From a virus: DNA of 64,000 nucleotides. This document shows, piece by piece, positions 5,979 to 59,830 of the stretch (positions are counted from its first letter, which is position 1; each line of letters starts with the position of its first letter). The stretch lies in the IMG/VR virus record IMGVR_UViG_3300020573_000227, positions 1 through 64,000 of that record; one strand, 5' to 3'. The position numbers and the translations under genes are program-made. Under the pieces are notes generated by a model. It did not search any database, had not been told where the DNA came from, and saw only the letters and a list, made by a program, of their open reading frames with translations.

Positions 5979-6031
5979 GTTTATATAAATATCTTTCGTA
6001 TCATTTGATATTTATATAAAAAGTGATTTAG

Positions 6032-34380: not shown

Positions 34381-34429
34381 ATATGTATAAATACAAAAAA
34401 GGAGGTTAAAAACCTCCTTTGTATTATTC

Positions 34430-41939: not shown

Positions 41940-42164
41940 ATGAAAAAATATACATTTATTTTCGCTATTGGTGCTATGTTAGCATTAACGGCATGTGGTT
42001 CAGGGTCAACCACAACTGAAACAACAGACTCCACGTCGGTTAATTTAGATTCTACTGCGGTAGCTGCAACAGACTCAACAACCTCAGAAATTACTTCTGG
42101 TGGTGCAAATACGACGACTACTGATGATGGTTTAAAGAAACCTTTAGTAGAAGAAGTAAAATAA
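41940..42164 (+). CDS. Small Thr/Ser-rich lipoprotein
   Basis: ATG 41940; MKKYTFIFAIGAMLALTA-C lipobox. Confidence 0.75.
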   Translation: MKKYTFIFAIGAMLALTACGSGSTTTETTDSTSVNLDSTAVAATDSTTSEITSGGANTTTTDDGLKKPLVEEVK

Positions 42165-42633: not shown

Positions 42634-42822
42634 ATGAAACTTTATTTAGATTTTAATACTTCGGTATGGTCCGTACATGTTATTCCATGTATTAGTTTAT
42701 ATTTTGATGCTCATTCCCCTCATGTTCATAGTAGATTATTTAGAGATGGTATAAGTGGTTTATATTTTTCATTATCTTGGTTAAAATGGACTTTTACAAT
42801 TGGTATTCATAAAAAAATCTAA
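42634..42822 (+). CDS. Small hypothetical protein
   Basis: MKLYLDFNTSVW..., between kinase and ligase; start uncertain. Confidence 0.4.
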   Translation: MKLYLDFNTSVWSVHVIPCISLYFDAHSPHVHSRLFRDGISGLYFSLSWLKWTFTIGIHKKI

Positions 42823-44012
42823 TGATAAAATTTTTAGAGGGATATCACACAGATGGTTTGTTACATAAACAGACTCACCCAACTCTTGATTTAACTATTT
42901 GGAATTATTCCCCAAAAGTTCAATACGAAAGATTGTGGGATGAAATTACTTTGCAATGTCGTGGATTAGTTACTAATTCAAAAGGTGAAATTGTTGCTCG
43001 ACCATTCAAAAAATTCTTTAATTACGAAGAACACAAACCAGAAGATTTGCCAAATGAATCTTTTGAGGTTTATGAAAAAATGGACGGATCTTTAGGTATA
43101 CTTTTTTATTACGAATACGAATTGAGTGATGAAAGAAGATATAACATTTGGTTTAATAACAATTACGAAACAGGTATGGAAAGGTTTTTTGACCCGAACA
43201 ACTTACCTGATTATGACAATTCATATTATGAACCAACACCAAAGACTAAGGGTGAATGGATAATAGCAACTCGTGGGTCATTCACATCACCACAAGCAAT
43301 TAAAGGTAAAGAACTTTTAGAGAAGTATAATTTTGAAAGATTACACACGGGATACACATATTTGTTTGAAATAATTTATAAAGAGAATAGAATAGTTTGT
43401 GATTATGATTATGATGATCTTGTTTTGTTAGGTATGATAAATACAAAAACAGGCGACGAGATTAATATCCATAATGATTATGAAGATGTTCGTTTTAAAA
43501 ATATGATATCCAATATCGGGTTTCGTGTTGTTATGTTATATAAAACGTGGGGAGAAGGGTATGATTTATTAAAAGAAGAAATATCTAATGATAGAGAAGG
43601 TTATGTGATTCGTTTCAAGAATGGATTTCGTATGAAAATCAAAGGTGAAGAATACAAAAGATTGCATAGAATCTTAACCAACATATCTAACAGAGACATA
43701 TGGGAATATTTGAAAGATAATAAACCATTTGATGAATTACTTGAAAAGGTACCTGATGAGTTTAATGATTGGGTTAAAGAAACGGTTAGAGATTTTACAA
43801 TTAGATTTGATAATATTAACAAAGACTATATTGAGATTTATGAAAATTTAAAATCACGAAATTTAGATAGAAAAGAGTTTGCAATCAGAGCAAAACAATA
43901 TAGACATTCTAACATTTTATTTAACATGTTAGACGGAAAAGAACATAAACAAAATATTTGGAAAATTATATATCCAAATTATTCAAAACCATTTAAGAAA
44001 GATGAAAATTGA
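42822..44012 (+). CDS. T4 Rnl1-type RNA ligase
   Basis: CRGL, RPFKKFFN, EKMDGSL, ATRGSF, FEII, EGYVI, KIKGEEY. Confidence 0.92.
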   Translation: MIKFLEGYHTDGLLHKQTHPTLDLTIWNYSPKVQYERLWDEITLQCRGLVTNSKGEIVARPFKKFFNYEEHKPEDLPNESFEVYEKMDGSLGILFYYEYELSDERRYNIWFNNNYETGMERFFDPNNLPDYDNSYYEPTPKTKGEWIIATRGSFTSPQAIKGKELLEKYNFERLHTGYTYLFEIIYKENRIVCDYDYDDLVLLGMINTKTGDEINIHNDYEDVRFKNMISNIGFRVVMLYKTWGEGYDLLKEEISNDREGYVIRFKNGFRMKIKGEEYKRLHRILTNISNRDIWEYLKDNKPFDELLEKVPDEFNDWVKETVRDFTIRFDNINKDYIEIYENLKSRNLDRKEFAIRAKQYRHSNILFNMLDGKEHKQNIWKIIYPNYSKPFKKDEN

Positions 44013-44484
44013 GAGGAAAAGATTATACTTGGACGACGTTAGAACTCCAATAGGGGACGATTGGATTATTGTTCGTAATTACGATGAGTTTGTATCAACC
44101 ATTAAATTCCACGGACTAGAAAATTTTGATGTGATTTCATTGGATCATGATTTGGGTGAACAATCTATGGTTGAATACTACACTAATGTAAAAAATAATT
44201 ATAAATTAGATTATAATAACATAGTCGATGAAAAAACTGGATATGATTGTTGTAAATTTTTAGTTAGTGAAAGTATGTCAAAAAACATACCATTACCTCA
44301 AATATACGTTCATTCGGCAAATCCAATAGGTAGTGCAAATATGATGGGTTACATTAACAATTATTTTAAGAATAGTAAATCGCCACAGACATGTATTAGA
44401 GTAGAAATAAAACACACTATAGACGAAAGTCATCACTTGTCACCAGAGGCAAGAAAGGCTAAATGGGATAGAACAAAAAATTAA
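44002..44484 (+). CDS. Cyclic-phosphate-processing receiver-like domain protein
   Basis: LYLDDVRTP, ISLDHDLG, TGYD, VHSANP.G; directly follows the RNA ligase. Confidence 0.75.
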   Translation: MKIERKRLYLDDVRTPIGDDWIIVRNYDEFVSTIKFHGLENFDVISLDHDLGEQSMVEYYTNVKNNYKLDYNNIVDEKTGYDCCKFLVSESMSKNIPLPQIYVHSANPIGSANMMGYINNYFKNSKSPQTCIRVEIKHTIDESHHLSPEARKAKWDRTKN

Positions 44485-45552: not shown

Positions 45553-45620
45553 ATGTATCAGGAGAGAGGTACATTTATTTTTTGTCATATCCCCGGTGGT
45601 TTTAATCATCGGGGATTTTT

Positions 45621-47060
45621 TTATAGTATCATTCTTGAACCGATTAGGAAGTTACTTAACCACGGTGTTCCCGAAGCGGTGTTCCCACTCAATTTGTAGT
45701 TAAAACTAAACCCAAATCTTTTACTCAACTTGTAATCAAACGAACTACCCAATAAAAATCCCATATGTCGATTAACGGTGGATGTTCCCGCAACAGTGTT
45801 CCAAGATAATGGTGCAAACATTGTAAATAGTTGTGGGGACACCGTTAACTTTTTACTATATTGATATGGTTTAGTCCAAAAAGCAACAACCGATGATGAC
45901 ATGTTATAATCATAGTTATCTTTTTCATTTTTAAGAAATAGATTTATCAATCCCAAATTATATCCAAATACACCATATTTTGGTGTTGGTTTAATCCACG
46001 TGTAACCCAACAAATTCATGTAATTTCCATTCAAATACGCAAATGCTGTTGAATATGAATGTATAGCCTTTAATTTACCTTCTGAAAAATCCATTTTAGT
46101 GTATCCACCACTGACAATAAATGTTTTTAAGTCACTCATAATAACTGTATTTGCGGAATAACTTTCATCTCCCATCAATGACGATTTAGACACCCCAATA
46201 GTGGCCGATTGTAACCATCGACCATCTGGAGATTCAATTGTGGATAAATCGGATGACAATAACATTGGGTTAGAAACTACAGCCTTTTCTTTTTTCTTCT
46301 CTTCTTTCTTTTCCTCTTTTTTCTCTTCTTTTTTCTCTTCCGATTTAGAATCCTCTTTCTTTTCTTCTTTAGATTCTGATTTAGCCTCTTCTTTCTTTTC
46401 CTCACTCTTACTTTCAGATTTAGATTCGGATTTAGATTCAGATTTAGATTCTGTTTTAGCTTCGGTCTTTGTTTCTGTTTTTGTTTCAGAAGATGAAGAT
46501 GATCCACTACTTGATGACGAACCACTTGATGAAGATGATGAACTTCCACTACTTGCTGGCGGAGGTGTCGATGAACTACTACTTGTTGGTGGTGGAGTAG
46601 TGGGTGGTGGAGTTGATGCCGCTGAACTCGCGGCGGCGGAACTTGCACTTGAACTAGCAGCAGAACTTGCCGATGATGATGCCGCACTACTTGCCGCACC
46701 ACTGGCAGCAGAACTAGCGGCAGCAGAAGCGGCCGATGCCGCCGCATTACTTGCGGTTTGTGCCGCCGCGTTTGCTACCGTTTGTTGAACAATTGGATTA
46801 TTAATTACAGGACAAGTCAATGCCTCATATGTTGCTTTAGTTGTAAATAACCAAGTCTGAACAATTCCCGTTTGTACTTCCATAGGGGTAAATGTTCTTA
46901 CTTGATTGTAAAAAGACACGGTAGCATTACCATTTATAATGGTTGTTGTTGCTATCTTTTTTTCACCACTACATTTATCAATAAATGTTTGTGTGTATGT
47001 TTGTCCAAAAGATTTACCACAAAAAAACAATATTAGGAGAGAGATAATATATTTTTTCAT
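45621..47060 (-). CDS. Secreted protein: N-domain, Ala/Ser/Pro/EK linker, C-terminal putative beta-barrel
   Basis: Signal peptide ending SFG-Q; alternating aromatic strands (GSSFDYKL, FGFSFNYKL). Confidence 0.65.
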   Translation of the reverse strand: MKKYIISLLILFFCGKSFGQTYTQTFIDKCSGEKKIATTTIINGNATVSFYNQVRTFTPMEVQTGIVQTWLFTTKATYEALTCPVINNPIVQQTVANAAAQTASNAAASAASAAASSAASGAASSAASSSASSAASSSASSAAASSAASTPPPTTPPPTSSSSSTPPPASSGSSSSSSSGSSSSSGSSSSSETKTETKTEAKTESKSESKSESKSESKSEEKKEEAKSESKEEKKEDSKSEEKKEEKKEEKKEEKKKEKAVVSNPMLLSSDLSTIESPDGRWLQSATIGVSKSSLMGDESYSANTVIMSDLKTFIVSGGYTKMDFSEGKLKAIHSYSTAFAYLNGNYMNLLGYTWIKPTPKYGVFGYNLGLINLFLKNEKDNYDYNMSSSVVAFWTKPYQYSKKLTVSPQLFTMFAPLSWNTVAGTSTVNRHMGFLLGSSFDYKLSKRFGFSFNYKLSGNTASGTPWLSNFLIGSRMIL

Positions 47061-47061
47061 T

Positions 47062-47895
47062 TTAAAAATTGATACCTAAACCAAAGGTACCGTTACGAAT
47101 TACCGGGTCATAGTCATACTTTATTGTTATATTTTTGAAATCGTGTAATATTCCAACTTTAACAGTTGCGAATCTATCTTTATATTTTGGGAAAGTAATA
47201 TATCCAATATCATCTTTACCTCTCCACTTCACATCTTCCGTCACACTACCAATCATAAGGTGAATACCCGTTCTTTTAATCCTCTTACCAACACCAACAT
47301 AGAAATTTCTTTGTTCTATCAAATCACTTACCATTGGAAAATCGACTTGTGTTATATTACCATAAGGAAAGAATGTTGAATTATCTCTTTCAAATGTTGA
47401 GTTATACTCAGCAATAAAATATGCTTTAGTCCCTATTGTAAAAAATCCACCAATCTGATTACCACCTGTTTTCTGAATACCAAAGCTGACGATTGGTCTC
47501 TTACCTTTAATGGTGTCCAATTTTCCATTATCATAAACATACACTCTTGCAGGTTGTCTATAACCCCAATCGTTTAAGTAAAAGCCTGGGTTCCAAAAGT
47601 TCCAACCAAATGCAGGTGCCCCCCACATATCCCATCTATTCCATCCCCATCCAAAATTATTCATTAACCATGGGTCTCTAACAATTATATTTGAACCCGG
47701 TCTTGTTCTTATAGGTCTATCATACCCTCTTGATGGTGGTTGACTCCTCCAATTACTAACATCGTTTCTTTGTGGGGTTGATGGTTGTATTGATGGTGTG
47801 GACCTTTGAGGTGTTGGAGGGTTATTTCTCCATGATGACACTTGTCCTAACACAATAGTTGGGGTGAGTAATAATAATATTAATAACGTTTTCAT
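47062..47895 (-). CDS. Putative outer-membrane beta-barrel protein with Pro/Arg/Trp-rich N-region
   Basis: Signal peptide; ends FGLGINF (BAM beta-signal-like). Confidence 0.65.
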   Translation of the reverse strand: MKTLLILLLLTPTIVLGQVSSWRNNPPTPQRSTPSIQPSTPQRNDVSNWRSQPPSRGYDRPIRTRPGSNIIVRDPWLMNNFGWGWNRWDMWGAPAFGWNFWNPGFYLNDWGYRQPARVYVYDNGKLDTIKGKRPIVSFGIQKTGGNQIGGFFTIGTKAYFIAEYNSTFERDNSTFFPYGNITQVDFPMVSDLIEQRNFYVGVGKRIKRTGIHLMIGSVTEDVKWRGKDDIGYITFPKYKDRFATVKVGILHDFKNITIKYDYDPVIRNGTFGLGINF

Positions 47896-47972
47896 ATGAT
47901 TATTCTTTTATTATAAATATAAAAAAAGGAGGTTATTACACCTCCTTTTAAATAATTCTTAATGTAATTAAA

Positions 47973-48692
47973 CTATTTTGTGAATATTCCTTTTTTAATC
48001 ATTCTATCAAGGATGTTAGCACATGCAATATCTAAAGCCTTTTTAGTTGCTATGGAAATTGTTGATTGATTAAATTTTATTGGGTCTACAGTTGCATCAG
48101 ATAAAAGGGTTAACTCTCTTTTTGTGGTTGCCTCACCTAAACCCGATCCTCCAAATACAACACCCGTTTCAGCATCTGTAAATCTAACCTGAAGACCTAT
48201 ACGAGTCACCATATTGTCTTGTATACCGTTTTTAAGGTTGATGGTTTCATCTTCCGATACTGAGTAGTCATAACACTCAATCGTAACAAAATACTTCGCC
48301 AAATTGATTTTACCGCGACCGTCTAATTTATTCTCGGAAATACCGGCTTGTGATGCTTGGAATTGTTTTACCATACGATTCTTAATTTCCGTCTTATCTT
48401 CGGTAAATTTGAATCTGTTTAAGTTTTCAAGGTATTCCATTGAAATGTTAGCAACACCAAGTCCCACGCGTTTTTCTTTTAACTCAGGATACATTTCATA
48501 CATCTCGTCAGAAATTCCTGCCTTTAGTATTTGAATTGGGATTTGCGGGCCGTCGTAATCCATGTAGTCACTTATATCTCTTTTCTTCTCAAAGTCGGCC
48601 TTATAGTCTTCCGTTTTAGTTTTACCTATTGTTTGTGCAAATGAGGTTATACTCATGAGTATAATACCTAAAAGTAAAATTATTTTTTTCAT
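47973..48692 (-). CDS. CsgG/HfaB-family protein
   Basis: Signal peptide; GLGVANISMEYLENLNRFKF; IGLQVRFTDAETG...GSGLGEA; SIATKKAL. Confidence 0.65.
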   Translation of the reverse strand: MKKIILLLGIILMSITSFAQTIGKTKTEDYKADFEKKRDISDYMDYDGPQIPIQILKAGISDEMYEMYPELKEKRVGLGVANISMEYLENLNRFKFTEDKTEIKNRMVKQFQASQAGISENKLDGRGKINLAKYFVTIECYDYSVSEDETINLKNGIQDNMVTRIGLQVRFTDAETGVVFGGSGLGEATTKRELTLLSDATVDPIKFNQSTISIATKKALDIACANILDRMIKKGIFTK

Positions 48693-48741
48693 ATTTTTTT
48701 ATTATAAATATTAAAAAGGGGAGTTAAAAACTCCCCTTATA

Positions 48742-48993
48742 TTAACCTTCTAATACTTCCTCTTTCTTTTTGTGAGAGAATTTATCCAAAGTGTCAGCAC
48801 CCATTCCAATTCCCGTGATTAACATAACCGCATTCACCAATTCAGGTGATGGGGCAAAATCCGCGTGAGAGAATGAATTTAAAATCATAGTTATACATAG
48901 GAATAAAGCTCCTATCATAGCTATTACTGGTTTTACTGATATTGACCCTCTTTCATCTTTGAAAAGTTCAATAACCCATTGTTTAAAGTTCAT
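48742..48993 (-). CDS. Small two-TM membrane protein (holin-like)
   Basis: LFKDERGSISVK, two hydrophobic helices, charged tail. Confidence 0.55.
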   Translation of the reverse strand: MNFKQWVIELFKDERGSISVKPVIAMIGALFLCITMILNSFSHADFAPSPELVNAVMLITGIGMGADTLDKFSHKKKEEVLEG

Positions 48994-49022
48994 AGTTTTT
49001 TGTTTTTTGTCTTTTGTTTATT

Positions 49023-49652
49023 TTATCCTTCCGAATGCATTTCTGCGTTTTCATCTTTTATTTTACCACATTTTAAGCATTCTTCAGTTCCGTCTCCGTC
49101 TAGGTCACCCCAAACGTGTTCACATTGTCTATGTGCGAAATACATGTCAATTTTACCGTCGCCGTCAAAATCTATACCGTCCATTGTACCATCACCATCT
49201 TCATCAACTTCAACACCAGTTCTTGGTTGAACGGTTGGTACTTGTTCGAACGTATCGTTTACCTTTTCTATTTTTGAATTTTCAATAGCGGTTTGAAATG
49301 ACTCAGGTATAATTGGTGTGTTATTAGGTGGGGTATCTGGTAAATCGGAGGTATTTGACAACGATGTACCATCTTCCTCATCCATTTTTTGAACTAACAT
49401 CTTATCCTTATCCGTATCACTAAACCAATAGTCAATTATTTTACCATAAGAACCGATGAAAGCTCCTAACAATAATAGAAGAAGTTCTTTCCACTCTCCT
49501 TCTATCGCTGATTTATTTAATATAGCGAAGAACATTCCTCCTATAATAAACATAAATCCACCCAATACTAATGCGGTGATGTACCATCTTCTGGCCATCA
49601 TATTACTTAATAAATCTTTAAAACCACTTGGGGGTTGTTTGTTTTCTTCCAT
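49023..49652 (-). CDS. Two-TM membrane protein with DxDGDG Ca-binding loops and Cys/His cluster
   Basis: Two TM helices; DEDGDG, DFDGDG, DLDGDG; CEH...CLKC. Confidence 0.65.
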   Translation of the reverse strand: MEENKQPPSGFKDLLSNMMARRWYITALVLGGFMFIIGGMFFAILNKSAIEGEWKELLLLLLGAFIGSYGKIIDYWFSDTDKDKMLVQKMDEEDGTSLSNTSDLPDTPPNNTPIIPESFQTAIENSKIEKVNDTFEQVPTVQPRTGVEVDEDGDGTMDGIDFDGDGKIDMYFAHRQCEHVWGDLDGDGTEECLKCGKIKDENAEMHSEG

Positions 49653-49670
49653 CTTTTTCTTTTTTTTAAT

Positions 49671-49829
49671 TTATGGTCTATTCCAAGACCATCCCTTTTT
49701 TCTACCTCTTATTATTAAATAACTACAACCTCCAATAAAAAATGTTAAAAACATCAATGGAGAATTAAATACAAACATAGCTATCATACATAATACGATT
49801 ACGGCTATAAAACTTAATCCCTGTTCCAT
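49671..49829 (-). CDS. 52-aa membrane protein (not in ORF track)
   Basis: MEQGLSFIAVIVLCMIAMFVFNSPLMFLTFFIGGCSYLIIRGRKKGWSWNRP*; fills the operon gap. Confidence 0.6.
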   Translation of the reverse strand: MEQGLSFIAVIVLCMIAMFVFNSPLMFLTFFIGGCSYLIIRGRKKGWSWNRP

Positions 49830-49835
49830 TTTAAA

Positions 49836-50147
49836 TTACCACTTAGGTGCCTCTTCCTTAAACTCGTCACCTTCTTTCTTTTTTACAGGAGCTGGTTTTT
49901 CTTTAACTGTTTCTTTTTCTTTAATAATTACAGTCTTACCACCACCCGCCGATTGTTGTTGAGTTTGTGAATTTGTAATGTTAATTACTGGTGCCGCTTG
50001 TACTGGTGCCGGTTCTGCCTTATCACCACCACCTAAAAGTGTTGATAACCATACTCCCGCCGCGGTCACTAATGTTCCTGCAACCCCAATTATTGTCTTT
50101 TTTAAACCCGACCAAGTTCCTTCTGATTGTTCTACTTCTTCTGACAT
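49836..50147 (-). CDS. Single-TM membrane protein
   Basis: One hydrophobic helix, then PVINIT...KTVIIKE. Confidence 0.6.
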   Translation of the reverse strand: MSEEVEQSEGTWSGLKKTIIGVAGTLVTAAGVWLSTLLGGGDKAEPAPVQAAPVINITNSQTQQQSAGGGKTVIIKEKETVKEKPAPVKKKEGDEFKEEAPKW

Positions 50148-50185
50148 TGTATTTGTTTTTAGTTTTTTAGTTTATTTTATTAATA

Positions 50186-50905
50186 TTACGCACCCAATGC
50201 TTTACTGAATCCATTAGGACAAGTTCTAGTACATATCAAATCTGCTATAATAGGTGCTACTGCAGTTCCGATTGCAATACCAACTCCAGCAGGGGTAGCC
50301 CATAATGCCGCCGAATCTAAACTATGATAGATACAATTTGAACATACGTTTCTTAATAATTCTGAATCAATATTTTCACCAACACCAGGTATTGATAAAA
50401 ATCCATCTGCCACTATTACACCCATTGCCGTTGATACCGCCATTTTAGCTGCCGTATCTGCAATGTAAAGAACAGGCGTAGCCATCAACGATAATGTAGT
50501 TGAAGTTGCCGCTCCAGCAGGTTGTGCTGGTGTAAATGCCGCAACAACACCGGCAGAGATTAGTGCGGTTATTGCTATATTACAAGCGTTTTCGTCCGCC
50601 CAGTTATATGCCATCACAGCACCATCTTTTACCACTTCATATCCCTCTTTAACACCAGATTCTATTTGATTTCCAACATTAATAAGTACCGGCATAACTT
50701 CTTCTTCCCATTCTCTACCTACCACATCTTCAACTCTATGATTTATTTCAGGATGGTCGTGAATGTATCTTATTGCTTTATTGGTTAATCCCCACGTATC
50801 ACACGCCGAACAAGGTCCATCTCCTCCGAATCCATACCATCTTACATAGTTATCACCACAATCCGAGCGATGATAAACAACTCCGTCTCCGTTTCTGTCT
50901 GCCAT
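50186..50905 (-). CDS. Cys-rich protein with hydrophobic Ala/Gly-rich helices
   Basis: 239 aa, no obvious signal peptide. Confidence 0.55.
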   Translation of the reverse strand: MADRNGDGVVYHRSDCGDNYVRWYGFGGDGPCSACDTWGLTNKAIRYIHDHPEINHRVEDVVGREWEEEVMPVLINVGNQIESGVKEGYEVVKDGAVMAYNWADENACNIAITALISAGVVAAFTPAQPAGAATSTTLSLMATPVLYIADTAAKMAVSTAMGVIVADGFLSIPGVGENIDSELLRNVCSNCIYHSLDSAALWATPAGVGIAIGTAVAPIIADLICTRTCPNGFSKALGA

Positions 50906-50925
50906 AATTTTTATTTTTTAATTTT

Positions 50926-51306
50926 TTAGTTTATTTTATTGAAATCTGTTATTCCTAATTGTTTATTGTTAGAATCGAATAACCCTATTCTATATGCTGA
51001 TGATGGTAACGCGTTAGTGTATACCTTTAAAAGATTATCACCCGCAACTACATTCATCGTTTCTTTAGATACTACTCTGTTTGAAATGTCGAATATTTTA
51101 ACCGTCACTGAACCCGCAGTTTCGGTTTTAACATTCATTGCCACCTCAGAGGTTACAAAAACAGTTTGTAATTTAATACCGACTGAATTTGTCATTTTAA
51201 GATCTTCCGATATCGATTGAGGGGCGGGTAAAATATCGTCCTTATAACATCCTGTTAAAATTGTGGATACCAATACTAATAAGAGAATCTTTTTCATTTT
51301 TGTCAT
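50926..51306 (-). CDS. Lipoprotein consisting of a T9SS C-terminal-domain-like fold
   Basis: LTG-C lipobox; VTVKIFDISNRVV...GDN...LPSSAYRI. Confidence 0.65.
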   Translation of the reverse strand: MTKMKKILLLVLVSTILTGCYKDDILPAPQSISEDLKMTNSVGIKLQTVFVTSEVAMNVKTETAGSVTVKIFDISNRVVSKETMNVVAGDNLLKVYTNALPSSAYRIGLFDSNNKQLGITDFNKIN

Positions 51307-51309
51307 TTT

Positions 51310-51651
51310 TTAATTTACTATTATTGTTGTCTTTTTTAATTCTTTTTTATTCACATCCTCAAGTACTAAATATAAATATCCCTTGGGTAGTGAATTGGTA
51401 TAAATCTTTTTTTCATTTTCACCTATTTGACCAATAAACTTTTCTCGACTTATTACTTGTCCACTATTTTTATCGATTAAAATTAAATAATGTACAGTAT
51501 TAGAGGTTAAATCAAAAAAAATTGATTGACCATTTGTTACACTACTTTCACCCACATTGAATATTTTTTCAACAGGAGGAGTTGGAGTTGGGATATCCAT
51601 CTTAGTACAACCCCATAGTAAAATCACAAATATGAATAGTATTTTTTTCAT
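51310..51651 (-). CDS. Lipoprotein, paralog of 50926-51306 (T9SS-CTD-like)
   Basis: LWG-C lipobox; LIDKNSGQVISRE...GEN...YTNSLPKGYLYL. Confidence 0.6.
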   Translation of the reverse strand: MKKILFIFVILLWGCTKMDIPTPTPPVEKIFNVGESSVTNGQSIFFDLTSNTVHYLILIDKNSGQVISREKFIGQIGENEKKIYTNSLPKGYLYLVLEDVNKKELKKTTIIVN

Positions 51652-51654
51652 ATG

Positions 51655-52548
51655 TTAAAATTGAAAGTTTGTTCCTATCATAAACATTATTGGATTACTC
51701 TTTTTATACCCAACCGATTCACTCAATTTGTCAAAAGTTGTGTTATATCTAATATTAGTATTCAAAATGAACCTTTTAGTTATTTTCCAATCAATAGATG
51801 TTCCATAATATAAGTCCAAATTGAAATCGTCTATATATGCTAAATCCGATTCAGTACCATCTTTAAATACTTTATATACATCACTCATTGCAAATATTTG
51901 TGGTGATATGTTTACTCTTTTTGTTTTAAATGTATATGTGTACATCACCATACCTCTATAACTTATTTCACTTGATGCTGGTATCATTGGGTATATTAAA
52001 TCTTTAAAATCACCATTTTCATCTACCGTATATTTTCCTTCCCACTCACCCTGATAAGTCCCCCAAAATGATTTTGACGCAATTACACTATAACCAAATG
52101 TTCCCCATTTTTTAGTTCTGAATACATCAATGAATGATAGGGTAATATCTTTTTGAAAATCAAAATCGGTTGAGTAAAATGATTGTAATGTTGTTGTTCT
52201 CTTTTCGGTATTTTTACTAAGTCCATAACCCACACCATAGTAGTTCCATATAGGATTTATTGATGCTGCGAATGTATGTCCCCATTGGCCATTCATAGAT
52301 GATTTATTATAACCCAAATTGAGAGTAGTAGATACTTGCTTTCCAATTATACCCACTGAAAGGTTTGACGATGATAGAACATCTTTTGAAAAATTAACAT
52401 AGGATTGTAATATACCCACATCGTTCCAATCATCACTTTCCCCAAATAATTCTTTTGGTGATAGTTGTAATGTATCGGGTTTTTGTATTTGTGCGTTTGT
52501 AACAAATGTTGTCGAAATTAGTGACAGAATTATTATTAGTTTTTTCAT
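51655..52548 (-). CDS. Putative outer-membrane beta-barrel protein
   Basis: Signal peptide ending TNA-Q; amphipathic strands; ends MIGTNFQF. Confidence 0.7.
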   Translation of the reverse strand: MKKLIIILSLISTTFVTNAQIQKPDTLQLSPKELFGESDDWNDVGILQSYVNFSKDVLSSSNLSVGIIGKQVSTTLNLGYNKSSMNGQWGHTFAASINPIWNYYGVGYGLSKNTEKRTTTLQSFYSTDFDFQKDITLSFIDVFRTKKWGTFGYSVIASKSFWGTYQGEWEGKYTVDENGDFKDLIYPMIPASSEISYRGMVMYTYTFKTKRVNISPQIFAMSDVYKVFKDGTESDLAYIDDFNLDLYYGTSIDWKITKRFILNTNIRYNTTFDKLSESVGYKKSNPIMFMIGTNFQF

Positions 52549-54842
52549 TAGTTCATTTTTACTTTTAATTGTGTTCCATTCTTATTGACGGCATCAGTTG
52601 TTGATATTGAAGTTAAACCCAAAGTACCACTCAATCCTATTAATGGTAAAAATGTTATTTTATATTCTGTTGTTTTATCCAATGATGTTGAACCATCAGT
52701 AATCAATGAACCTAATGTTATTGATGAACCTCTATTAGTTCCAAAATTGGTAGGAGTTCCCTTTGTGGTGAATTCTACCTTTTCAAACTTTAATGCTGTG
52801 TTATCATAGTTTAAGTTAAATTGAGTACCAACTACCTCTTGTTGTAAAGGGTCTACCGAAATCGTTACTACTAATTTACCTTCAACATTTTCACCTATTA
52901 GGTACGCATTGATTTGATTAGGGATTGAATTGGTACTCAAACTCATAGTTCTAATAGAATTACCAGCAACGCCGGTCGCACTTTGTTGTGCGGAATGAGA
53001 TAGGTTTACATCACCCAACCACGTTACACTTATATTGTATGTGTTATTTAAACTACCTAATGTAAATGGAATTAAGTTACGAGTTGAATTGAATTTAGTT
53101 GCCCAATTTGATGTTGTTACCCCATCATAATCTGATTTGTTATACAACTTCATTAAATAAGTTAATGCGGTAGATTGTGAAAGTGATTGAACACCTGTAA
53201 GATGTTGTAATAGTCTGTAGGTATCTGCTTCATTGAATATACCATTACCATCCACATCTGCATTTAAATACTGAATACCATTTGTAAATTCTAATCCACT
53301 TTGGTTTCCAAATAATCCACCATTTGATAATTCTTTAAATGCAATGAATACATCCGATACAGTTACAATACTATTATATAAACTATTTAACTCCGTTTGA
53401 TTTGAATGTGTCAATTCCATTCCATGTGGTTTGTATGATAATACCGGTGAGAAACTAAATTCAGCTCTCGTTCCATACCAGCCATCTTGTAATCTTAATT
53501 GAGCTTGAAATGTAGATGAAGTTATTTTGGTTGTCAAATTACCAGGCATTATATAGGTTTTCCAAAAACCACTTACACTATGAACACTAACTGGTCCATC
53601 GTATATATCAAATAATTTAATTGATGTTACATTGTTTGGGGATACTCCTGTTCCATCAAATTCTCTTTCATCTATTAATAATTGATGTCCACCTAAATTG
53701 GCATCATATGGATTTATTATTGCCCATTCAACTTGTCCGGCAGATGTTGTTGCTCTAATCCCACCACCTGAAACCTTTGCAGTATCCAACAAACTTGTCA
53801 AATCAACTTTACCTAAACCACTTAATTGTCTAGCAGTTCCGTTTACTATATTCCAATTGTTATTTGTATATGTGTACCCTTTTGCTGTGAATTTAGTTTC
53901 ATCCACATTAGTTCCGAAATCAACATTAAATGAAGCTCTCAATACTTCTCCGTTTGAGTGAGTCACACTGTTAGTATAAAATTCAGTAAAGGTTGCATCA
54001 TCGGGGTTAGTCCACGTTCCAAATTCAACTACATAAGCACAACTAAAATGATTAGGTAAATCGTTCCATTGAGAACCTCCTCCCCATTTAGTTACCGCAT
54101 AATCTTCGTTACCACTATTGTTTGGTTCTCCCGGTGCCCAGTTATTATATTGACCAGGAATGTTTCCGTTTAGTTGTCCGTTATTTATTTTAATTAAAGT
54201 TCCCTTTTCAGGTCCGGCATCTATTGTCCATCTAGCTTCCTCTACTTCATCCGTCAATGCAAACCAAATACTAGATTGTGGAACATTAGCAAATATAAAA
54301 GCATCCTCCGAAGCGGATGTTATTGTTACTAAATATCCTTGCTGGCCTTTGAATGTTTGTTGAGATGATAATGTTCTTGCGTTCGTATAGGTTGCTCCCG
54401 TTGCTATTGGTCTATAAAAGTGTCCATTGACACCATTGTAAAAATAACCAACAGGGTTTACAGTTGCGGCTACCGATAATTGAACATTACCAATTACCGA
54501 ACCCGTATTTATTTTTAGGGATGCTAATGCAGTATTAATATCTGCCATCGTTCCATTTACCACCAAACGAGTTTTATTACCTGTTAAAGTAAATCCACTT
54601 GCGGCGGTTAAACCTGTTGTTGTGGTTAGATAAAATGTGGTATTTGTCGATGGATTTATTAAACTGATTGATGCTAACAAAGTCGATGTTGTACTAAATC
54701 CACTTAATTGGAATCCACTTCCATCTTGTGCAGTTGTGGACGGTATAAACGATTTAGAGTCCGGAGCAGATACACTCTGTCCGAACCCTAAAAATGAAAT
54801 TAGTAAAAAACATATTACTAATAGTTTCTTCATATTACTCAA
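52548..54842 (-). CDS. Secreted modular protein: C-type lectin domain, dockerin-like repeat, C-terminal cohesin-like domain
   Basis: NGHFY...GYLVTITSASE...YNNWAPGEPNN...EDY...WNDL (CTLD); ADVDGNGIFNEADTYRLLQHL (dockerin-like); VVGTQFNLNYDNTALKF (cohesin-like). Confidence 0.75.
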   Translation of the reverse strand: MSNMKKLLVICFLLISFLGFGQSVSAPDSKSFIPSTTAQDGSGFQLSGFSTTSTLLASISLINPSTNTTFYLTTTTGLTAASGFTLTGNKTRLVVNGTMADINTALASLKINTGSVIGNVQLSVAATVNPVGYFYNGVNGHFYRPIATGATYTNARTLSSQQTFKGQQGYLVTITSASEDAFIFANVPQSSIWFALTDEVEEARWTIDAGPEKGTLIKINNGQLNGNIPGQYNNWAPGEPNNSGNEDYAVTKWGGGSQWNDLPNHFSCAYVVEFGTWTNPDDATFTEFYTNSVTHSNGEVLRASFNVDFGTNVDETKFTAKGYTYTNNNWNIVNGTARQLSGLGKVDLTSLLDTAKVSGGGIRATTSAGQVEWAIINPYDANLGGHQLLIDEREFDGTGVSPNNVTSIKLFDIYDGPVSVHSVSGFWKTYIMPGNLTTKITSSTFQAQLRLQDGWYGTRAEFSFSPVLSYKPHGMELTHSNQTELNSLYNSIVTVSDVFIAFKELSNGGLFGNQSGLEFTNGIQYLNADVDGNGIFNEADTYRLLQHLTGVQSLSQSTALTYLMKLYNKSDYDGVTTSNWATKFNSTRNLIPFTLGSLNNTYNISVTWLGDVNLSHSAQQSATGVAGNSIRTMSLSTNSIPNQINAYLIGENVEGKLVVTISVDPLQQEVVGTQFNLNYDNTALKFEKVEFTTKGTPTNFGTNRGSSITLGSLITDGSTSLDKTTEYKITFLPLIGLSGTLGLTSISTTDAVNKNGTQLKVKMN

Positions 54843-56487
54843 TGGTTAAATCAACTTTATTTCCTTTCGCGTCAACAGCATCCGATAAAACAAAGTAGAA
54901 TAAACCCGCGGTATTTGTTAAAGTTGTCTTTGGTGTAAAAATTAATTTATACGGTGTACCAACTTTAATTCTTGCAGTTTTAGTTTGATCAATAGAACCA
55001 AACGTTAATCTGCTACCTTCATGTGTTGTGAAGTTAGTGATTGTAGAACCAGCATCAAATATTACATTATCCAAACTTAATTTTGAATCATCATAATTCA
55101 TGATAACTTGTAACCCCGCCAATTCTGCTCTTGTTAAAGTGGTTGTTAATACAACCTTACCATTTTCTAACGTTGATGACACACCAAGTTTAGCGATTTC
55201 TACAGCTTCTGTTTTATATGCCATAGATGTTGACATACTCATAGTTTTTAATGTGTTAACTTCGCCATTTACTGAATTAGTATATAAACCAGAACTTATT
55301 CTGCTAGCAATTACTGCTGGATCAGATGAATGTGACCAGTTTAGATCACCACCCCATGCAAATACTGCATGTACTTCTTTTATTGGTGTGTCAATTAAAA
55401 CTCTATTCTTAACCACACCGTCTAACCAACTTTGATTTAATAAACCACTGTACCATCTTACTGATGTTGAAGTTGACGTTGGTATCATTGCTGTTGTTGA
55501 CATATTTTGACCCATTACGTGCGCAAATAATGCGTATGAATCTGCTTCTCCAAATGGATTGTTACCTAAACTAACTTTACCAACTTTCTTTTCTAATGCT
55601 GGTAATGTAAAGAAGTTAGCGGTTCCACCAATATCTGTTTGTGAATGACCTAAAAACGCTTTATAAGCATCTGATACAGTTATAATATTGTTCATCCATG
55701 TTTTAGTCATTGAAGGCGCAACAAATAGACCAACCGAATCACCTACTTTAACCTGTGTTGTAAAAAGAACTTCACCACTAGCATCTAATGGTAATTGTGC
55801 AATAGGTTGTTGTGACCAATCAATATCACCACTACCATCTGATTTCAATTTCATTAATTGAACATTATGATCTGTGATTGCATATCCCTGTGGAAATAAT
55901 ACTTTAACTTTAAATTGTGATGTGTTACCAACAACACCTGTTAAAGATGACCAACCAGCACCATTTATGGTTCCAACATTCGTACCAGTTGTATCAGTAC
56001 CTGTTGCTAAATCCAATCTGAAAATATTGTTATAAGTATTTTGATCTTTTAAGATATACTTTTGTGTTGCGATTAATCCATTAATAGATTGATCTGCTCT
56101 TTGAACAGTCAATTGACCAACATTCCAATCAGCATTTACAGCATAATTCCATGGTGTTAAACCATATTGAACATTTAAATCATTATCACTTGCACCACTG
56201 TTTGGTGTGAATTTATAGTTATTCCAACCAGTGTAGAAAGTTTGTGCAGATGTTCCTTGGTTAAAAGCTGTTGAAACATATGTTAACGCTTTATTATTAA
56301 ACTGATATCTAAACCAAATATAACGTGGGTTCTTTATTACAGTACCTTTTGTTAAATTATATCTAACAGTAATAGTATCACCAACCTTTAATCCACTTGC
56401 TGGTGTTAAAGATTGACTTATTGTTAGTTGAGCAAACGATGTAAAAGCAATCAATAAAAAGAATCCAAGAGAGAGTAGTTTTTTCAT
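54835..56487 (-). CDS. Secreted modular protein with N- and C-terminal cohesin-like domains and a degenerate dockerin-like segment
   Basis: GDTITV...FRYQFNNKAL; ITVSDAYKAF; WGGDLNWSHS; LAGLQVIMNYDDSKL. Confidence 0.65.
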   Translation of the reverse strand: MKKLLSLGFFLLIAFTSFAQLTISQSLTPASGLKVGDTITVRYNLTKGTVIKNPRYIWFRYQFNNKALTYVSTAFNQGTSAQTFYTGWNNYKFTPNSGASDNDLNVQYGLTPWNYAVNADWNVGQLTVQRADQSINGLIATQKYILKDQNTYNNIFRLDLATGTDTTGTNVGTINGAGWSSLTGVVGNTSQFKVKVLFPQGYAITDHNVQLMKLKSDGSGDIDWSQQPIAQLPLDASGEVLFTTQVKVGDSVGLFVAPSMTKTWMNNIITVSDAYKAFLGHSQTDIGGTANFFTLPALEKKVGKVSLGNNPFGEADSYALFAHVMGQNMSTTAMIPTSTSTSVRWYSGLLNQSWLDGVVKNRVLIDTPIKEVHAVFAWGGDLNWSHSSDPAVIASRISSGLYTNSVNGEVNTLKTMSMSTSMAYKTEAVEIAKLGVSSTLENGKVVLTTTLTRAELAGLQVIMNYDDSKLSLDNVIFDAGSTITNFTTHEGSRLTFGSIDQTKTARIKVGTPYKLIFTPKTTLTNTAGLFYFVLSDAVDAKGNKVDLTIE

Positions 56488-56491
56488 TTTT

Positions 56492-57142
56492 TTATTTTTT
56501 ATCCATTAATTTATTTATTAATTTTTCACTAGCCTTTTTGAGGGCATTACTCAAAGATGTTTGATTAAATGACCCTCCTTCGTCAACAATAAGAGTTGAC
56601 ATAGAAACTTCAGATGATGATTCTTCAACAACAAATTCCTTTTCTTTTTTACCGTCTTTTGTTAATGTCCCCTTCAATCTAATAACCACTTCTTCCTGAT
56701 TAGAATGGAAAACAGATATGTTCTTCTTTGTTGTAAGAACATCTAAATAAACAATTTGTACTTTTAATTTGTAAGGAGATGATTCGGATAAGTCGTAACC
56801 CTTTTCTTGTAAAAACTCCTCTAAGATGTTTTTAACTCCGAATGCTAAATTTCTATTACCTGCCAATTTACCAATCTTAACTTCATTTGTCACACTTTCA
56901 ACCCAAATGTGGTCTTCAGCATTATACCAAATATTTTCGGGAGAGTTTTTGAATGTACCATCGATTCGCCATTCAATCCAATTTACAATGTTTCTTTGTA
57001 ATTCATGTTTACCAGAAAGTTCTAAATAAACGAAGAATAATTGAAAACAAAGGGCGAACGCAATCCAAAACCCGACTAATGATAAAAATACCATAGCAAG
57101 TTTGTCGCCGATGTTAATTGTAAGTGATTTGATTTTTTCCAT
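56492..57142 (-). CDS. Membrane-anchored protein, possibly CsgG/LptE-like alpha/beta fold
   Basis: N-terminal TM helix; AFGVKNILEEFL...FNQTSLSNALKKASEKL resembles the C-terminus of 47973-48692. Confidence 0.5.
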   Translation of the reverse strand: MEKIKSLTINIGDKLAMVFLSLVGFWIAFALCFQLFFVYLELSGKHELQRNIVNWIEWRIDGTFKNSPENIWYNAEDHIWVESVTNEVKIGKLAGNRNLAFGVKNILEEFLQEKGYDLSESSPYKLKVQIVYLDVLTTKKNISVFHSNQEEVVIRLKGTLTKDGKKEKEFVVEESSSEVSMSTLIVDEGGSFNQTSLSNALKKASEKLINKLMDKK

Positions 57143-57340
57143 AAAGTTCTAAGTTTTTTGTTACTCACTCAGAACCACATATGAATATGATATGTAATGT
57201 ATGAGAGAGATACATTTATTTTTTGTCTGTTTATAAATACTATTGATTTGAACTACCGATGAAAGTCCCACATTATTTTTTTAAAAAATATTTTGTTTTA
57301 TCTAAAAATGATGTTATATTAGACATATAATTATAAAAAT

Positions 57341-58120
57341 ATGAGTAATTTTAAACATCTTACAGATTTAGAAATCCAACAAATGACATTTGATTGGAGA
57401 TACCGTGGATTTACAACACTTGAACTTTTAACCGAAGAAGAATGTGATGAAATCAACGAGGAACTTGAACGTTTACGTCAAGAAAGAAAAGGTACAACCA
57501 CACAAGACGGTAAAGAGTGGGGTGAATGGGATCCATTTGCTTATCCTCATAAATTATCAGATAAATTGGAAAAATTATTTGCTCACCCTAAGTTAATCGA
57601 GGCTTGTGAGTTTTTAATGGAAGGTGAACTTGTTGGTATGCAAAGTTGGGCATATTTTAAACCACCAGGACAATTGGGTCGTGACCAACACCAAAATGCG
57701 TTCTATACAGGTTGTAAACATAATGAAATCATCAACACCGCACTTGCGTTAGATAACCATGATTCTGGTAATGGTTCCGTGTGGAACTATGAAGGTTCAC
57801 ATAGATTACAAACTCTACCAATTGAGATTGATGAGGAAAGAGCTAAAACAAACCCATCTTTTTGGAGAAATGAAAGAGGTAAACCATGTATTATGCCTGA
57901 AGGACATGACTTCCGTAAAGTTGAGGGTATCTTGAAAAAGGGTCAGGTTGTGTTATTACACTCACACTGTGTACACGGGTCGGAAGCTAACACTTCGAAT
58001 AGAATGAGAAGAAACTTCTTGGGTGGATTCTTAAAGAAAGGAGCATATTACAATCAAGGAAGTCATATGAAACGTGAACCTATTGATATGTACGAATTGA
58101 GAGATAAACACTGGAAATAA
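57341..58120 (+). CDS. Phytanoyl-CoA dioxygenase (PhyH)-family 2OG-Fe(II) oxygenase
   Basis: FKPPG...HQN...ALD...NG...GSH...KGQVVLLH...HGS..N.S..R. Confidence 0.85.
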   Translation: MSNFKHLTDLEIQQMTFDWRYRGFTTLELLTEEECDEINEELERLRQERKGTTTQDGKEWGEWDPFAYPHKLSDKLEKLFAHPKLIEACEFLMEGELVGMQSWAYFKPPGQLGRDQHQNAFYTGCKHNEIINTALALDNHDSGNGSVWNYEGSHRLQTLPIEIDEERAKTNPSFWRNERGKPCIMPEGHDFRKVEGILKKGQVVLLHSHCVHGSEANTSNRMRRNFLGGFLKKGAYYNQGSHMKREPIDMYELRDKHWK

Positions 58121-59081: not shown

Positions 59082-59384
59082 ATGATAGATAAAATCACAT
59101 TATCGTTAATGTTATTTTTTAACACATTAACATCATCTATCGACCCAAGTCTTTCCGATGAAAGAAAGTCAGTCAATCAAATAAAAAAAGAGATTAAGTC
59201 TCTTGAAAGAAAGATTGAATGGGTTGAAGTAACAGATGAGAATTACGCTAGCAGGGCCGTCAAAACCAAAGAAATCACGGACGAGATTACCAAATTGAAT
59301 GGTAAAATTGTAAAGATTGAGAAGGTAGCAATTTTAAAAGAGAAATGGGCTAAGGAAGATTCCTTAACCAAATCGAAAAAATGA
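59082..59384 (+). CDS. Putative exported coiled-coil protein
   Basis: Hydrophobic N-terminus followed by heptad pattern. Confidence 0.55.
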   Translation: MIDKITLSLMLFFNTLTSSIDPSLSDERKSVNQIKKEIKSLERKIEWVEVTDENYASRAVKTKEITDEITKLNGKIVKIEKVAILKEKWAKEDSLTKSKK

Positions 59385-59830
59385 AAAAAATTTTTTTAGT
59401 GCTGACGTTACTTTTGGGAGTGGAAGTCGTGGCAAATGGACAAGAGTGGTTTATAACCGCCACTCGAAAAGGCGGTCCATCAGATGGTTATATAACAGGT
59501 GGTTTTATGAAAAAAGGTTGGGGGTTCTATGCTGGTCTTCCTTATGGTGAAATAGGTGGTACTAATGGTGGAATTTCAATTCCTCCTGGCGTCAACACTA
59601 AAACAGGAAATGTGTCTGATAACATGAAGTTTGGTGTTCTTAGACAAGTAAAAGAGGACAAGGCGATTGTTGGATTTGGATTACAACCAACGATTGATGG
59701 TAACAAACCAAATTTTCTTATAATGTACAATCCACTTAGACCAAGTAGTGTTTTAAATCTATGGACAATTGGTAATATGGTTGGTGATGATTTTACATTA
59801 GGACTTGGATTATCGTATAAAGTCAAATAA
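59381..59830 (+). CDS. Small putative outer-membrane beta-barrel protein
   Basis: Signal peptide ending ANG-Q; Gly-rich strands; ends LGLGLSYKVK. Confidence 0.6.
   Translation: MKKIFLVLTLLLGVEVVANGQEWFITATRKGGPSDGYITGGFMKKGWGFYAGLPYGEIGGTNGGISIPPGVNTKTGNVSDNMKFGVLRQVKEDKAIVGFGLQPTIDGNKPNFLIMYNPLRPSSVLNLWTIGNMVGDDFTLGLGLSYKVK

Follow-up and report, generated by a model that had tools for sequence, protein, structure and literature searches.

A block of exported lectin, barrel-like and CsgG-fold proteins in a T4-like jumbo phage of Bacteroidota

Results

The gene block and its phage

The stretch of DNA considered here, referred to as the window, comprises the 64,000 nucleotides (nt) at positions 1 to 64,000 of the IMG/VR virus record IMGVR_UViG_3300020573_000227, and the subject of this work is a block at 45621-57142 on its minus strand, where 14 co-oriented open reading frames (ORFs) extend over 11.5 kilobases (kb) and are for the most part closely packed, overlapping or 0-40 nt apart. 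According to a simple hydropathy and cleavage-site script, 13 of the 14 products carry a Sec or lipoprotein signal or a transmembrane (TM) helix, as against 6 of the 66 other ORFs of the window (Fisher p 1.1e-9, strict cut-off). The same script finds cleavable N-terminal signals on eight products, six of the signal peptidase I (SPI) type, which end in A/G-Q, and two that contain a lipobox Cys, and TM helices in five more; g07 has a weaker TM segment. The six SPI signals have the form typical of Bacteroidota, that is, MKK, a hydrophobic core and A/G-Q. A first-pass annotation, made from the letters of the sequence, had described 14 packed and mostly exported genes directed at the host envelope, among them two lipoproteins and two large modular exported proteins; the extent of the ORFs, the export signals of 13 products, the lipoboxes of g09 and g10 and the signal peptides of g12 and g13 bear this out. 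The genes, in the order in which they would be transcribed, are as follows.

g14, 56492..57142, minus strand: 216 amino acids (aa), N-terminal TM anchor and conserved domain of ~140 aa; putative second CsgG-fold (YajG-like) protein
g13, 54835..56487, minus strand: 550 aa; the signal peptide is followed by an N-terminal part that varies and by a conserved dockerin-like and cohesin module at the C-terminus
g12, 52548..54842, minus strand: 761-764 aa; the signal peptide is followed by a C-type lectin head, one EF-hand/dockerin-like loop (DVDGNG) and a cohesin-like domain at the C-terminus
g11, 51655..52548, minus strand: 297 aa, signal peptide and predicted 12-14-stranded outer-membrane (OM) beta-barrel, C-terminal Phe
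g10, 51310..51651, minus strand: 113 aa, lipoprotein, small beta-sandwich, partial lipoprotein export signal (LES) motif C-T-K-M-D
g09, 50926..51306, minus strand: 126 aa, lipoprotein, C-Y-K-D-D after the lipobox
g08, 50186..50905, minus strand: 239 aa, without a signal peptide; 8 Cys, hydrophobic segments rich in Ala and Gly, TM 107-125 and 203-221; accessory gene
g07, 49836..50147, minus strand: 103 aa, bitopic inner-membrane protein, Pro/Lys/Glu-rich tail; core gene
g06, 49671..49829, minus strand: 52 aa, small membrane protein, TM 3-21; in 15 related loci, no Pfam match
g05, 49023..49652, minus strand: 209 aa, N-terminal TM (27-45), acidic region, three DxDxDG calcium-loop motifs, Cys/His knuckle
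g04, 48742..48993, minus strand: 83 aa, small membrane protein, TM 20-38, charged C-terminus, holin-like look; no Pfam match
g03, 47973..48692, minus strand: 239 aa, SPI signal, CsgG fold; own putative promoter box and flanking terminators in this window
g02, 47062..47895, minus strand: 277 aa, signal peptide, Trp/Gly-rich region, C-terminal beta domain of ~150 aa, ends in Phe
g01, 45621..47060, minus strand: 479 aa, signal peptide, two-Cys N-domain of ~75 aa, linker, C-terminal putative barrel, ends in Leu

That the DNA comes from a phage, as first proposed, is evident from the genes for the major head protein (phrog_138, E 1e-67), portal, large terminase and head maturation protease of a T4-like tailed phage, which lie at 25-35 kb of the same window. 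By its head protein, the closest cultured relative is Flavobacterium phage vB_FspM_immuto (hereafter immuto), at ~43% identity, and the host group is the freshwater Flavobacterium-type bacteria of the Bacteroidota. Related viral contigs reach 324 and 335 kb and are rated 97-100% complete, and the window phage is thus a jumbo phage of Bacteroidota.

A search with g03 found 6,287 database relatives, with relatives on 516 viral contigs that include the complete 324-kb and 335-kb genomes. Across the 80 best loci among these g03-bearing contigs the gene order is kept, as the annotation had asked of related phages, and identity is very uneven: 85-99% for g03, which makes it the most conserved gene of the block, 37-99% for g02, 28-88% for g12 and 24-93% for g13. 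The accessory gene g08 is present in ~20 of the 80, about a quarter. Megablast of the block against 50,697 phage records gave no match, and PHROGs and NCBIfam gave nothing useful for the block proteins scanned (in the case of PHROGs, all but g04, g06, g07 and g09). An equivalent of the block in host chromosomes was found neither in ~400 sampled Bacteroidota genomes nor beside bacterial g03 homologues; among the 401 genomes sampled, the tail module of g12 occurs in none and the g03 family in 41, all of them distant except the seed genome.

Two CsgG-fold proteins

The likeness of g03 to CsgG, noted in the first-pass annotation, is real at the level of fold and superfamily. The sequence of g03 itself has no Pfam match at E <= 0.1, and a full-library HMMER search brought together 214 relatives, down to 25% identity; 14 of the 32 homologues aligned match Pfam CsgG PF03783 (best 1.9e-17), six of the 32 match LpoB, and bacterial homologues reach 28.6 and 33 bits against Pfam CsgG (cut-off 20.8). 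With the family profile, Escherichia coli CsgG is found in the PDB at E 1e-3. The AF2 model (pLDDT 85) is matched to CsgG by Foldseek with probability 1.0 and a TM-score of 0.45-0.5, and CsgG holds the top rank in VIA (Z 11.3-11.7, root-mean-square deviation (rmsd) ~4.0 over 156-175 residues), followed by Cj1090c (10.6), PelC (9.9), LptE (~8.3), FlgT and TraT (6.9). In a viral structure library, the best match to g03 is a phage CsgG.

A curli-type secretion pore, the role that the comparison with CsgG would have implied, is nevertheless not supported for g03. CsgG is an OM lipoprotein, but the signal of g03 ends in SFAQ without a Cys, so that there is no lipobox, and the same is true of the immuto homologue, whereas bacterial relatives do carry one. 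As read from sequence and model, there is a single long hairpin (134-173), equivalent to TM1, whose tip and extension are acidic and polar; the TM2 equivalent is ~9 residues shorter and is modeled as a strand end plus a short helix, not as a hairpin. Read in this way, g03 does not show the two amphipathic TM beta-hairpins that each CsgG subunit contributes to the 36-stranded barrel. As for the partners, no csgF, csgE or csgA/B family was found in Pfam scans of all 14 products or NCBIfam scans of 10 of them.

The second protein, g14, matches Pfam Lipoprotein_16/YajG at E 5e-5, slightly below the cut-off, and in its relatives a lipobox or an SPI signal takes the place of the TM anchor. A PDB profile search with g14 returned nothing meaningful, and the direct hhalign comparison of the g03 and g14 families is not significant. 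There are, however, bacterial second paralogues that align with both, with the g14 family at 95% (E 2.7e-8) and with the g03 family at 99.8%, and because of this intermediate, g14 is taken as a remote paralogue of g03; the C-terminal FNQ..A.KKA helix that had been seen in both proteins is the trace of a true remote homology.

The bacterial pairs in question, from metagenome-assembled genomes of the Fibrobacterota-Chlorobiota-Bacteroidota (FCB) group (Ignavibacteriales, Bacteroidota, Fibrobacterota, KSB1 and Cloacimonadota), are the nearest cellular relatives of g03, at 33-46% identity. They are CsgG-like lipoproteins encoded by two adjacent paralogues, mirroring g03 plus g14 in the phage, and score above the Pfam CsgG cut-off; they differ from the phage proteins in having lipoboxes and in their neighbors, which are not barrels or lectins. 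As an observation apart, these pairs adjoin genes for caspase-domain (Peptidase_C14) and CHASE2-cyclase proteins, and some are fused to caspase or Ser/Thr kinase domains, an association that looks like an uncharacterized envelope signaling or defence-like arrangement.

Predicted outer-membrane barrels

For g11 the AF2 model is of low confidence (pLDDT 53, pTM 0.52), all-beta and of ~13 strands. All 50 rows listed for it by VIA are OM barrels, such as CymA (Z 14.7, rmsd 3.9 over 212 residues), EspP (13.7) and OmpG (13.6); nearly all the matches listed by Foldseek are too, including TamA, BamA, EspP and FapF, as are its neighbors in a language-model atlas. The C-terminal ~220 aa of g01 are homologous to g11, with shared motifs in the alignment, and are separated from the N-domain by a low-complexity linker of ~180 aa, rich first in Ala/Ser/Pro and then in Ser/Glu/Lys, a domain order that would be that of a classical autotransporter. 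The evidence supports g11 and the C-domain of g01 as homologous OM barrels, g11 from its low-confidence model and g01 by homology. In the 401 Bacteroidota genomes this family has no real match, the one hit at E 1.2e-4 covering model positions 1-56, which are the signal peptide, and a PDB profile search with the family gave nothing meaningful.

The language-model neighbors of g02 are OMP_b-brl_2 (0.89) and OMP_b-brl (0.88), and some of its relatives end in NNK instead of Phe; it is a probable small OM barrel, to be taken as a lead only. The possibility that the three barrels form one family was considered and discarded, since the hidden Markov model of the barrel family missed g02 (as well as the C-domain of immuto gp018), so that g01 and g11 are related and g02 belongs to a separate family. 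Of the three barrel-like proteins first proposed, two of them ending in Phe, g11 and the C-domain of g01 stand, while g02 has its language-model neighbors and its sequence pattern in its favor.

Lectin and cohesin-like proteins

Translation of g12 probably begins with the ATG at 54833 rather than the TTG at 54842. Against Pfam Lectin_C PF00059 the protein scores 22.3 bits with a cut-off of 22.6 (E 2.3e-4), and against Cohesin PF00963 20.7 bits with a cut-off of 24.1 (E 5.2e-4); in the g12/g13 family, 10 of 25 members match Cohesin (best 1.4e-7) and 10 of 25 match Lectin_C (best 9.7e-7). The two proteins of the block share their C-terminal part, at 29% identity over 300 aa (E 9e-23), a stretch that consists of the EF-hand-like loop and the cohesin-like domain, and in relatives the head is replaced by LCCL (7e-13), PA14 (1.7e-9) or GLEYA. 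In other words, a constant dockerin-like/cohesin tail carries interchangeable glycan-binding heads, and this swapping of heads on a conserved tail points to the recognition of variable host glycans. In immuto the counterparts are the lectin gp013, 37% identical to g12, and gp015, which hhalign aligns with the g12/g13 family at 40% probability (E 3e-4).

The term dockerin-like is used here in a restricted sense. The EF-hand-like loop of g12 is kept in 30 of 32 relatives, but it is a single DxDxNG loop, about half of the g13 relatives do not have a calcium loop, neither g12 and g13 nor g05 has a Pfam dockerin match, and the two loop-helix repeats of a true dockerin are not seen. Of the cohesin/dockerin-like adhesins of the first-pass annotation, the cohesin part draws on the matches in the 10 relatives, and the other part is dockerin-like only. 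With regard to g05, which has no Pfam family, all three DxDxDG loops are kept in 59 of 61 relatives, and it could be the dockerin-like partner of the g12 and g13 cohesins.

Three further searches were negative. The head of g12 has no second copy, for instance on a tail fiber, in two complete relatives (335 kb and 324 kb), where the copy in the cluster is the only one; no template repeat of the kind used by diversity-generating retroelements was found for the C-type lectin by low-stringency blastn against the window; and neither g12 nor g13 has a sorting domain of the type IX secretion system (T9SS).

Lipoproteins and small membrane proteins

The residues C-Y-K-D-D of g09 fit the LES (lipobox Cys and K-(D/E)2 at +3 to +5), and most relatives have C-x-K-D/E-D/x. 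The signal comes from work on Capnocytophaga canimorsus, where K-(D/E)2 at these positions was defined as the LES and shown to function (PMC5080379), and from the motif g09 may be expected at the cell surface. The lipoprotein g10 is a paralogue of g09 (31% identity, E 3e-9), and the lipobox Cys of the family is invariant in 27 relatives. Both proteins had been described as similar to the T9SS C-terminal domain (CTD), a description that is not upheld: they reach 14-15 bits against Por_Secre_tail PF18962 (cut-off 27), seven of the 27 relatives match it (best 1.4e-3) and 10 match DUF3244, and hhalign of the family against the T9SS CTD of immuto gives 16%. They are stand-alone lipoproteins, not tags on a cargo.

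Among the small proteins, g07 is present in 65 related ORF sets and is 52% identical to immuto gp016, which lies directly upstream of the immuto g03 homologue; g04 is 88-100% identical in 38 related loci, and g08 has no family match besides a weak PHROG one.

Transcription units and DNA elements

The organization of the block in this window is marked by an octamer, by terminators and by a repeated hairpin, at these positions.

TATTTATA box, 57232..57239, minus strand: 89 nt upstream of g14; exact box in 22 of 49 relatives
Terminator hairpin and T-run, then TATTTATA, 48703..48740, minus strand: 10 nt upstream of g03; exact box in 9 of 79 relatives
Terminator hairpin and T-run, then TATTTATA, 47912..47949, minus strand: 16 nt upstream of g02; exact box in 30 of 54 relatives
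Element of ~35 nt, copy 1, 57203..57227, minus strand: in the 5' leader, immediately downstream of the promoter box of g14
Element of ~35 nt, copy 2, 45562..45586, minus strand: just beyond the end of g01

The octamer TATTTATA has 22 copies in the window against 12.7 expected; 19 of them lie outside any ORF, 18 are located 3-89 nt upstream of a gene start on the same strand, and many come directly after a terminator hairpin. It precedes the genes for the terminase (34386), the portal (32554) and the head protease (29264), as well as a gene for a 414-aa protein at 27230-28474 that is situated just upstream of the major head protein gene (28500). Bacteroidota promoters of the host type are unlike this box, which is reminiscent of the T4 late promoter TATAAATA. 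Because it precedes head and packaging genes, it is probably the late-class promoter of this phage lineage. One copy lies inside g10, 64 nt ahead of g09; it falls on the conserved coding motif G-Y-L-Y-L and is not counted as a promoter. Other sites in the window are at 5984, 6009, 23850 and 59070. In the large terminase (32605-34458), the listed GTG start is probably wrong, as a terminator and TATTTATA at 34386 stand 5 nt before an ATG at 34380.

The hairpins ahead of the g03 and g02 boxes are GC-rich and have a T-run, and these junctions of terminator and TATTTATA divide what had been called one operon into at least three units in this window: g14 to g04, g03 alone, and g02 to g01. Such a layout is not universal among relatives, where g03 often comes directly after another gene.

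The element of ~35 nt is a hairpin with the stem AATGTAT/ATACATT and the loop CTCTCTC. It has two matches in the window and none in 100 shuffles, and the two copies, 11.6 kb apart, bracket the block and are both kept in the relatives L019-L021. It could be a regulatory target or a cassette boundary.

A reduced block in a cultured phage, and known systems

In immuto (NC_055915; host Flavobacterium sp. LMO8), gp013-gp019 form a seven-gene, co-oriented and reduced version of the block, annotated in the record only as hypothetical, lectin and cohesin domain proteins. They include homologues of g03 (54% identity), g07 (52%) and g14 (25%); gp018, with the same architecture as g01 (N-domain hhalign 96%, E 3.9e-9); gp013, a C-type lectin with a signal peptide (Lectin_C 57.3 bits); an exported protein of 363 aa; and gp015, in which, unlike in g12 and g13, a cohesin (36.7 bits) is accompanied by a genuine T9SS sorting domain (Por_Secre_tail 34.6 bits), each scoring above its Pfam cut-off. 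It follows from this sorting domain that in immuto the host T9SS exports the cohesin part to the cell surface. Missing from immuto are g02, g11, g09/g10, g04-g06 and g08, and the immuto set shows in this way which genes of the block are core. Since the pair formed by immuto and Flavobacterium sp. LMO8 carries these core genes, the question of their function is directly testable.

A partial precedent exists in the csgG/csgF clusters ("curli," type VIII secretion) of T4-like pelagimyophages of the HTVC008M group (PMC7029224) and of the methylophage Melnitz (PMC9004378). As in the present block, a T4-like phage carries a CsgG-superfamily protein together with exported proteins, and the hosts of those phages have no cognate system. 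The block differs in that it has no CsgF and no curlin-like genes, in that its g03 is without a lipobox or convincing TM hairpins, and in that it adds a second CsgG-fold protein, three putative barrels, surface lipoproteins and the lectin/cohesin proteins; furthermore, a BLAST search with g03 against the 50,697 phage records matched only immuto and none of the csgGF phages. No paper describing this Bacteroidota-phage block was found in the literature. The statement that no characterized phage system has this make-up therefore holds for the block as a whole, and has to be qualified by the published csgG/csgF clusters and by the small version in immuto.

Other comparisons come from the structural matches. 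PelC forms a ring that underlies the PelB barrel, LptE plugs the barrel of LptD, and TraT is an OM ring that acts in surface exclusion. The g03 model resembles PelC (Z 9.9) and LptE (~8.3), and the g11 model resembles PelB in a PelBC entry (Z 11.8), so that the logic of a ring or plug plus a barrel would fit the co-occurrence of CsgG-fold and barrel proteins in the block. In contrast to PelC-PelB and LptE-LptD, there is no membership at the sequence level, g03 is not a lipoprotein, and the block has no genes of a polysaccharide or lipopolysaccharide pathway. With TraT and the T5 protein Llp, too, a mobile element puts a protein in the host OM and changes how accessible the surface is; the TraT decamer is a weak match to the g03 fold (Z 6.9), and Llp-FhuA is among the barrel matches of g11. 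These, however, are single small lipoproteins with defined protein targets, while the block has 14 genes and glycan-binding heads.

Discussion

The reading that we favor, with a confidence somewhat better than even, is that the block encodes an envelope module, expressed late, by which variable lectins are anchored on the infected Bacteroidota cell. The fold partners of g03, namely PelC, LptE and TraT, speak for a complex of CsgG-fold and barrel proteins made late and placed in the envelope. The contacts between the parts, their exposure at the surface and the biological effect are what we infer, and could be pictured as follows. The block would be transcribed together with the late (virion) genes and its products would be assembled in the envelope of the infected host, where the g01, g02 and g11 barrels would insert in the OM. 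The CsgG-fold proteins, g03 soluble after cleavage of its signal and g14 anchored in the membrane, would lie beneath or within the barrels in a manner similar to PelC-PelB or LptE-LptD, and not as a curli pore. The lipoproteins g09 and g10 would be flipped to the cell surface, and the small inner-membrane proteins g04-g07, among them g05 with its three calcium loops, would constitute the inner-membrane side. The dockerin-like/cohesin tail of g12 and g13 would tether the glycan-binding heads to the complex or to each other, presumably at the surface.

As a net effect, the envelope of the infected cell, and likewise its debris, would hold variable lectins that bind surface glycans of the host type. 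Such lectins might glue neighboring host cells to the infected cell, or else mask receptors, and the masking would lead to superinfection exclusion and protect the progeny from debris; either cell-cell capture or receptor masking could be the outcome. A cell-cell or "sibling capture" of this kind has been proposed for the csgGF of pelagimyophages (PMC7029224).

Several points weigh against this reading. The localization, assembly and timing of the block are deduced; the late timing follows from the identity of the genes that TATTTATA precedes, and the box specific to g03 occurs in only 9 of 79 relatives. The g11 model is of low confidence (pLDDT 53), and g02 as a barrel is a lead only. The cohesin and lectin scores of the proteins of the window fall slightly under the Pfam cut-offs, and given that g12 and g13 have no T9SS sorting domain, they could stay in the periplasm. 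Finally, no clumping was observed for the csgGF-bearing phage Melnitz (PMC9004378), which by analogy weakens the idea of aggregation.

A bolder form of the same idea, to which we would assign a low probability, is that the block is a self-contained OM display machine of the phage, in which a g03/g14 ring under the phage barrels moves or anchors the folded lectin-cohesin proteins without the T9SS of the host. Infected cells would then grab neighboring hosts or cloak the phage receptor, and the heads would be exchanged as the host glycans change. If true, this would amount to an apparatus of a new kind, encoded by a phage and serving secretion and adhesion.

Among the alternatives, the two that survive best, each of them improbable in our judgment, are a lysis or egress cassette and a complex confined to the periplasm. 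In the first, the small inner-membrane proteins would be holin- or antiholin-like timers, and the CsgG-fold proteins, lipoproteins and barrels a spanin-like or pore device that breaches the OM. The late-type promoter boxes would suit such a function, as would the holin-like size, TM segment and charged tail of g04 and the union of inner-membrane proteins, lipoproteins and OM proteins in one block, which resembles a spanin layout, and there is a published speculation, made for Melnitz, that CsgGF pores in phages time lysis (PMC9004378). However, the family scans recognized no endolysin in or beside the block, the g03 hairpins look too polar for a membrane pore, and known lysis systems have no place for two proteins of 550-760 aa that combine swapped lectin heads with a cohesin tail; moreover, what immuto keeps are the homologues of the lectin, the cohesin, g07, g03, g01 and g14, whereas g04, g05 and g06 are not detectable there.

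In the second, g12 and g13 would be docked by their cohesins to the inner-membrane protein g05 and would have peptidoglycan or glycan intermediates as their ligands; one possible purpose would be to keep out the incoming DNA or the tail tubes of other phages, another to stabilize the wall until lysis. This is in keeping with the Sec signals of g12 and g13 unaccompanied by a T9SS sorting domain, with the three conserved DxDxDG loops of g05 on the side predicted as periplasmic, and with a g03 that has no lipid anchor. It is doubtful, nonetheless, in view of the immuto cohesin protein, which the T9SS sorting domain directs to the surface, the surface-export signal of g09, and heads (PA14, GLEYA, LCCL, C-type lectin) typical of extracellular adhesins; it would also leave three OM barrels unexplained.

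Much less probable is an auxiliary function in nutrient capture, by which a Sus-like set of glycan-binding proteins, lipoproteins and barrels would raise the uptake of polysaccharides. Surface lipoproteins, glycan-binding modules and OM barrels are indeed the ingredients of the polysaccharide utilization loci of Bacteroidota, and SusCD complexes appear among the structure matches of the barrel, but the Pfam and NCBIfam scans gave no SusC/TonB-dependent or SusD family match, the barrels have ~12-14 strands and not 22, glycoside hydrolases are missing, the promoter is of the late type, and recognition of variable cell-surface glycans would account better for heads that are swapped between close relatives than recognition of substrates. 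The hypothesis that the lectin/cohesin proteins are parts of the virion, receptor-binding fibers or decorations that are exported and join the particles outside the cytoplasm, is very improbable, for even though the late-type promoter, the swapped glycan-binding heads that resemble receptor-binding proteins and the C-type lectin fold used by some phage fibers (Bordetella phage Mtd) count in its favor, g12 and g13 have classical cleavable Bacteroidota signal peptides and lie amid barrels and lipoproteins, in immuto the homologue is a T9SS cargo, and the g12 head has no copy elsewhere in the two complete relatives.

Returning to the late envelope module, single phage proteins are known to go to the host envelope, exclusion lipoproteins and those of the Lom or Bor type among them, and here an abundant lineage of freshwater phages spends ~11.5 kb on a coordinated set of exported proteins. 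If the lectins act on the surface glycans of the host, a lytic phage would have in them a novel means of managing the host surface or the spatial structure of the host population, and the recurrence of CsgG-fold proteins in aquatic T4-like phages would be explained.

Other genes of the window

Just upstream of the block, at 42822-44484, an RNA ligase gene (phrog_562, E 2e-73) overlaps that of a cREC_REC "cyclic-phosphate processing receiver" protein (Pfam E 1.5e-23), likely a pair for tRNA/RNA repair. The phage also encodes an AAA+ "ATP-dependent protease" of 672 aa at 39732-41750 (phrog_4871, E 1e-242) and, at 57341-58120 and divergent from the block, a PhyH-family dioxygenase (Pfam E 1e-19). 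Exported proteins outside the block include a lipoprotein of 74 aa (lipobox LTAC) at 41940-42164 and a protein of 149 aa with an SPI signal ending in GQ at 59381-59830. Two large proteins on the minus strand, at 1076-3256 and 4341-5978, both match phrog_15511 and phrog_38031; they have no similarity to the heads of g12 and g13, and may be fiber-like structural proteins.

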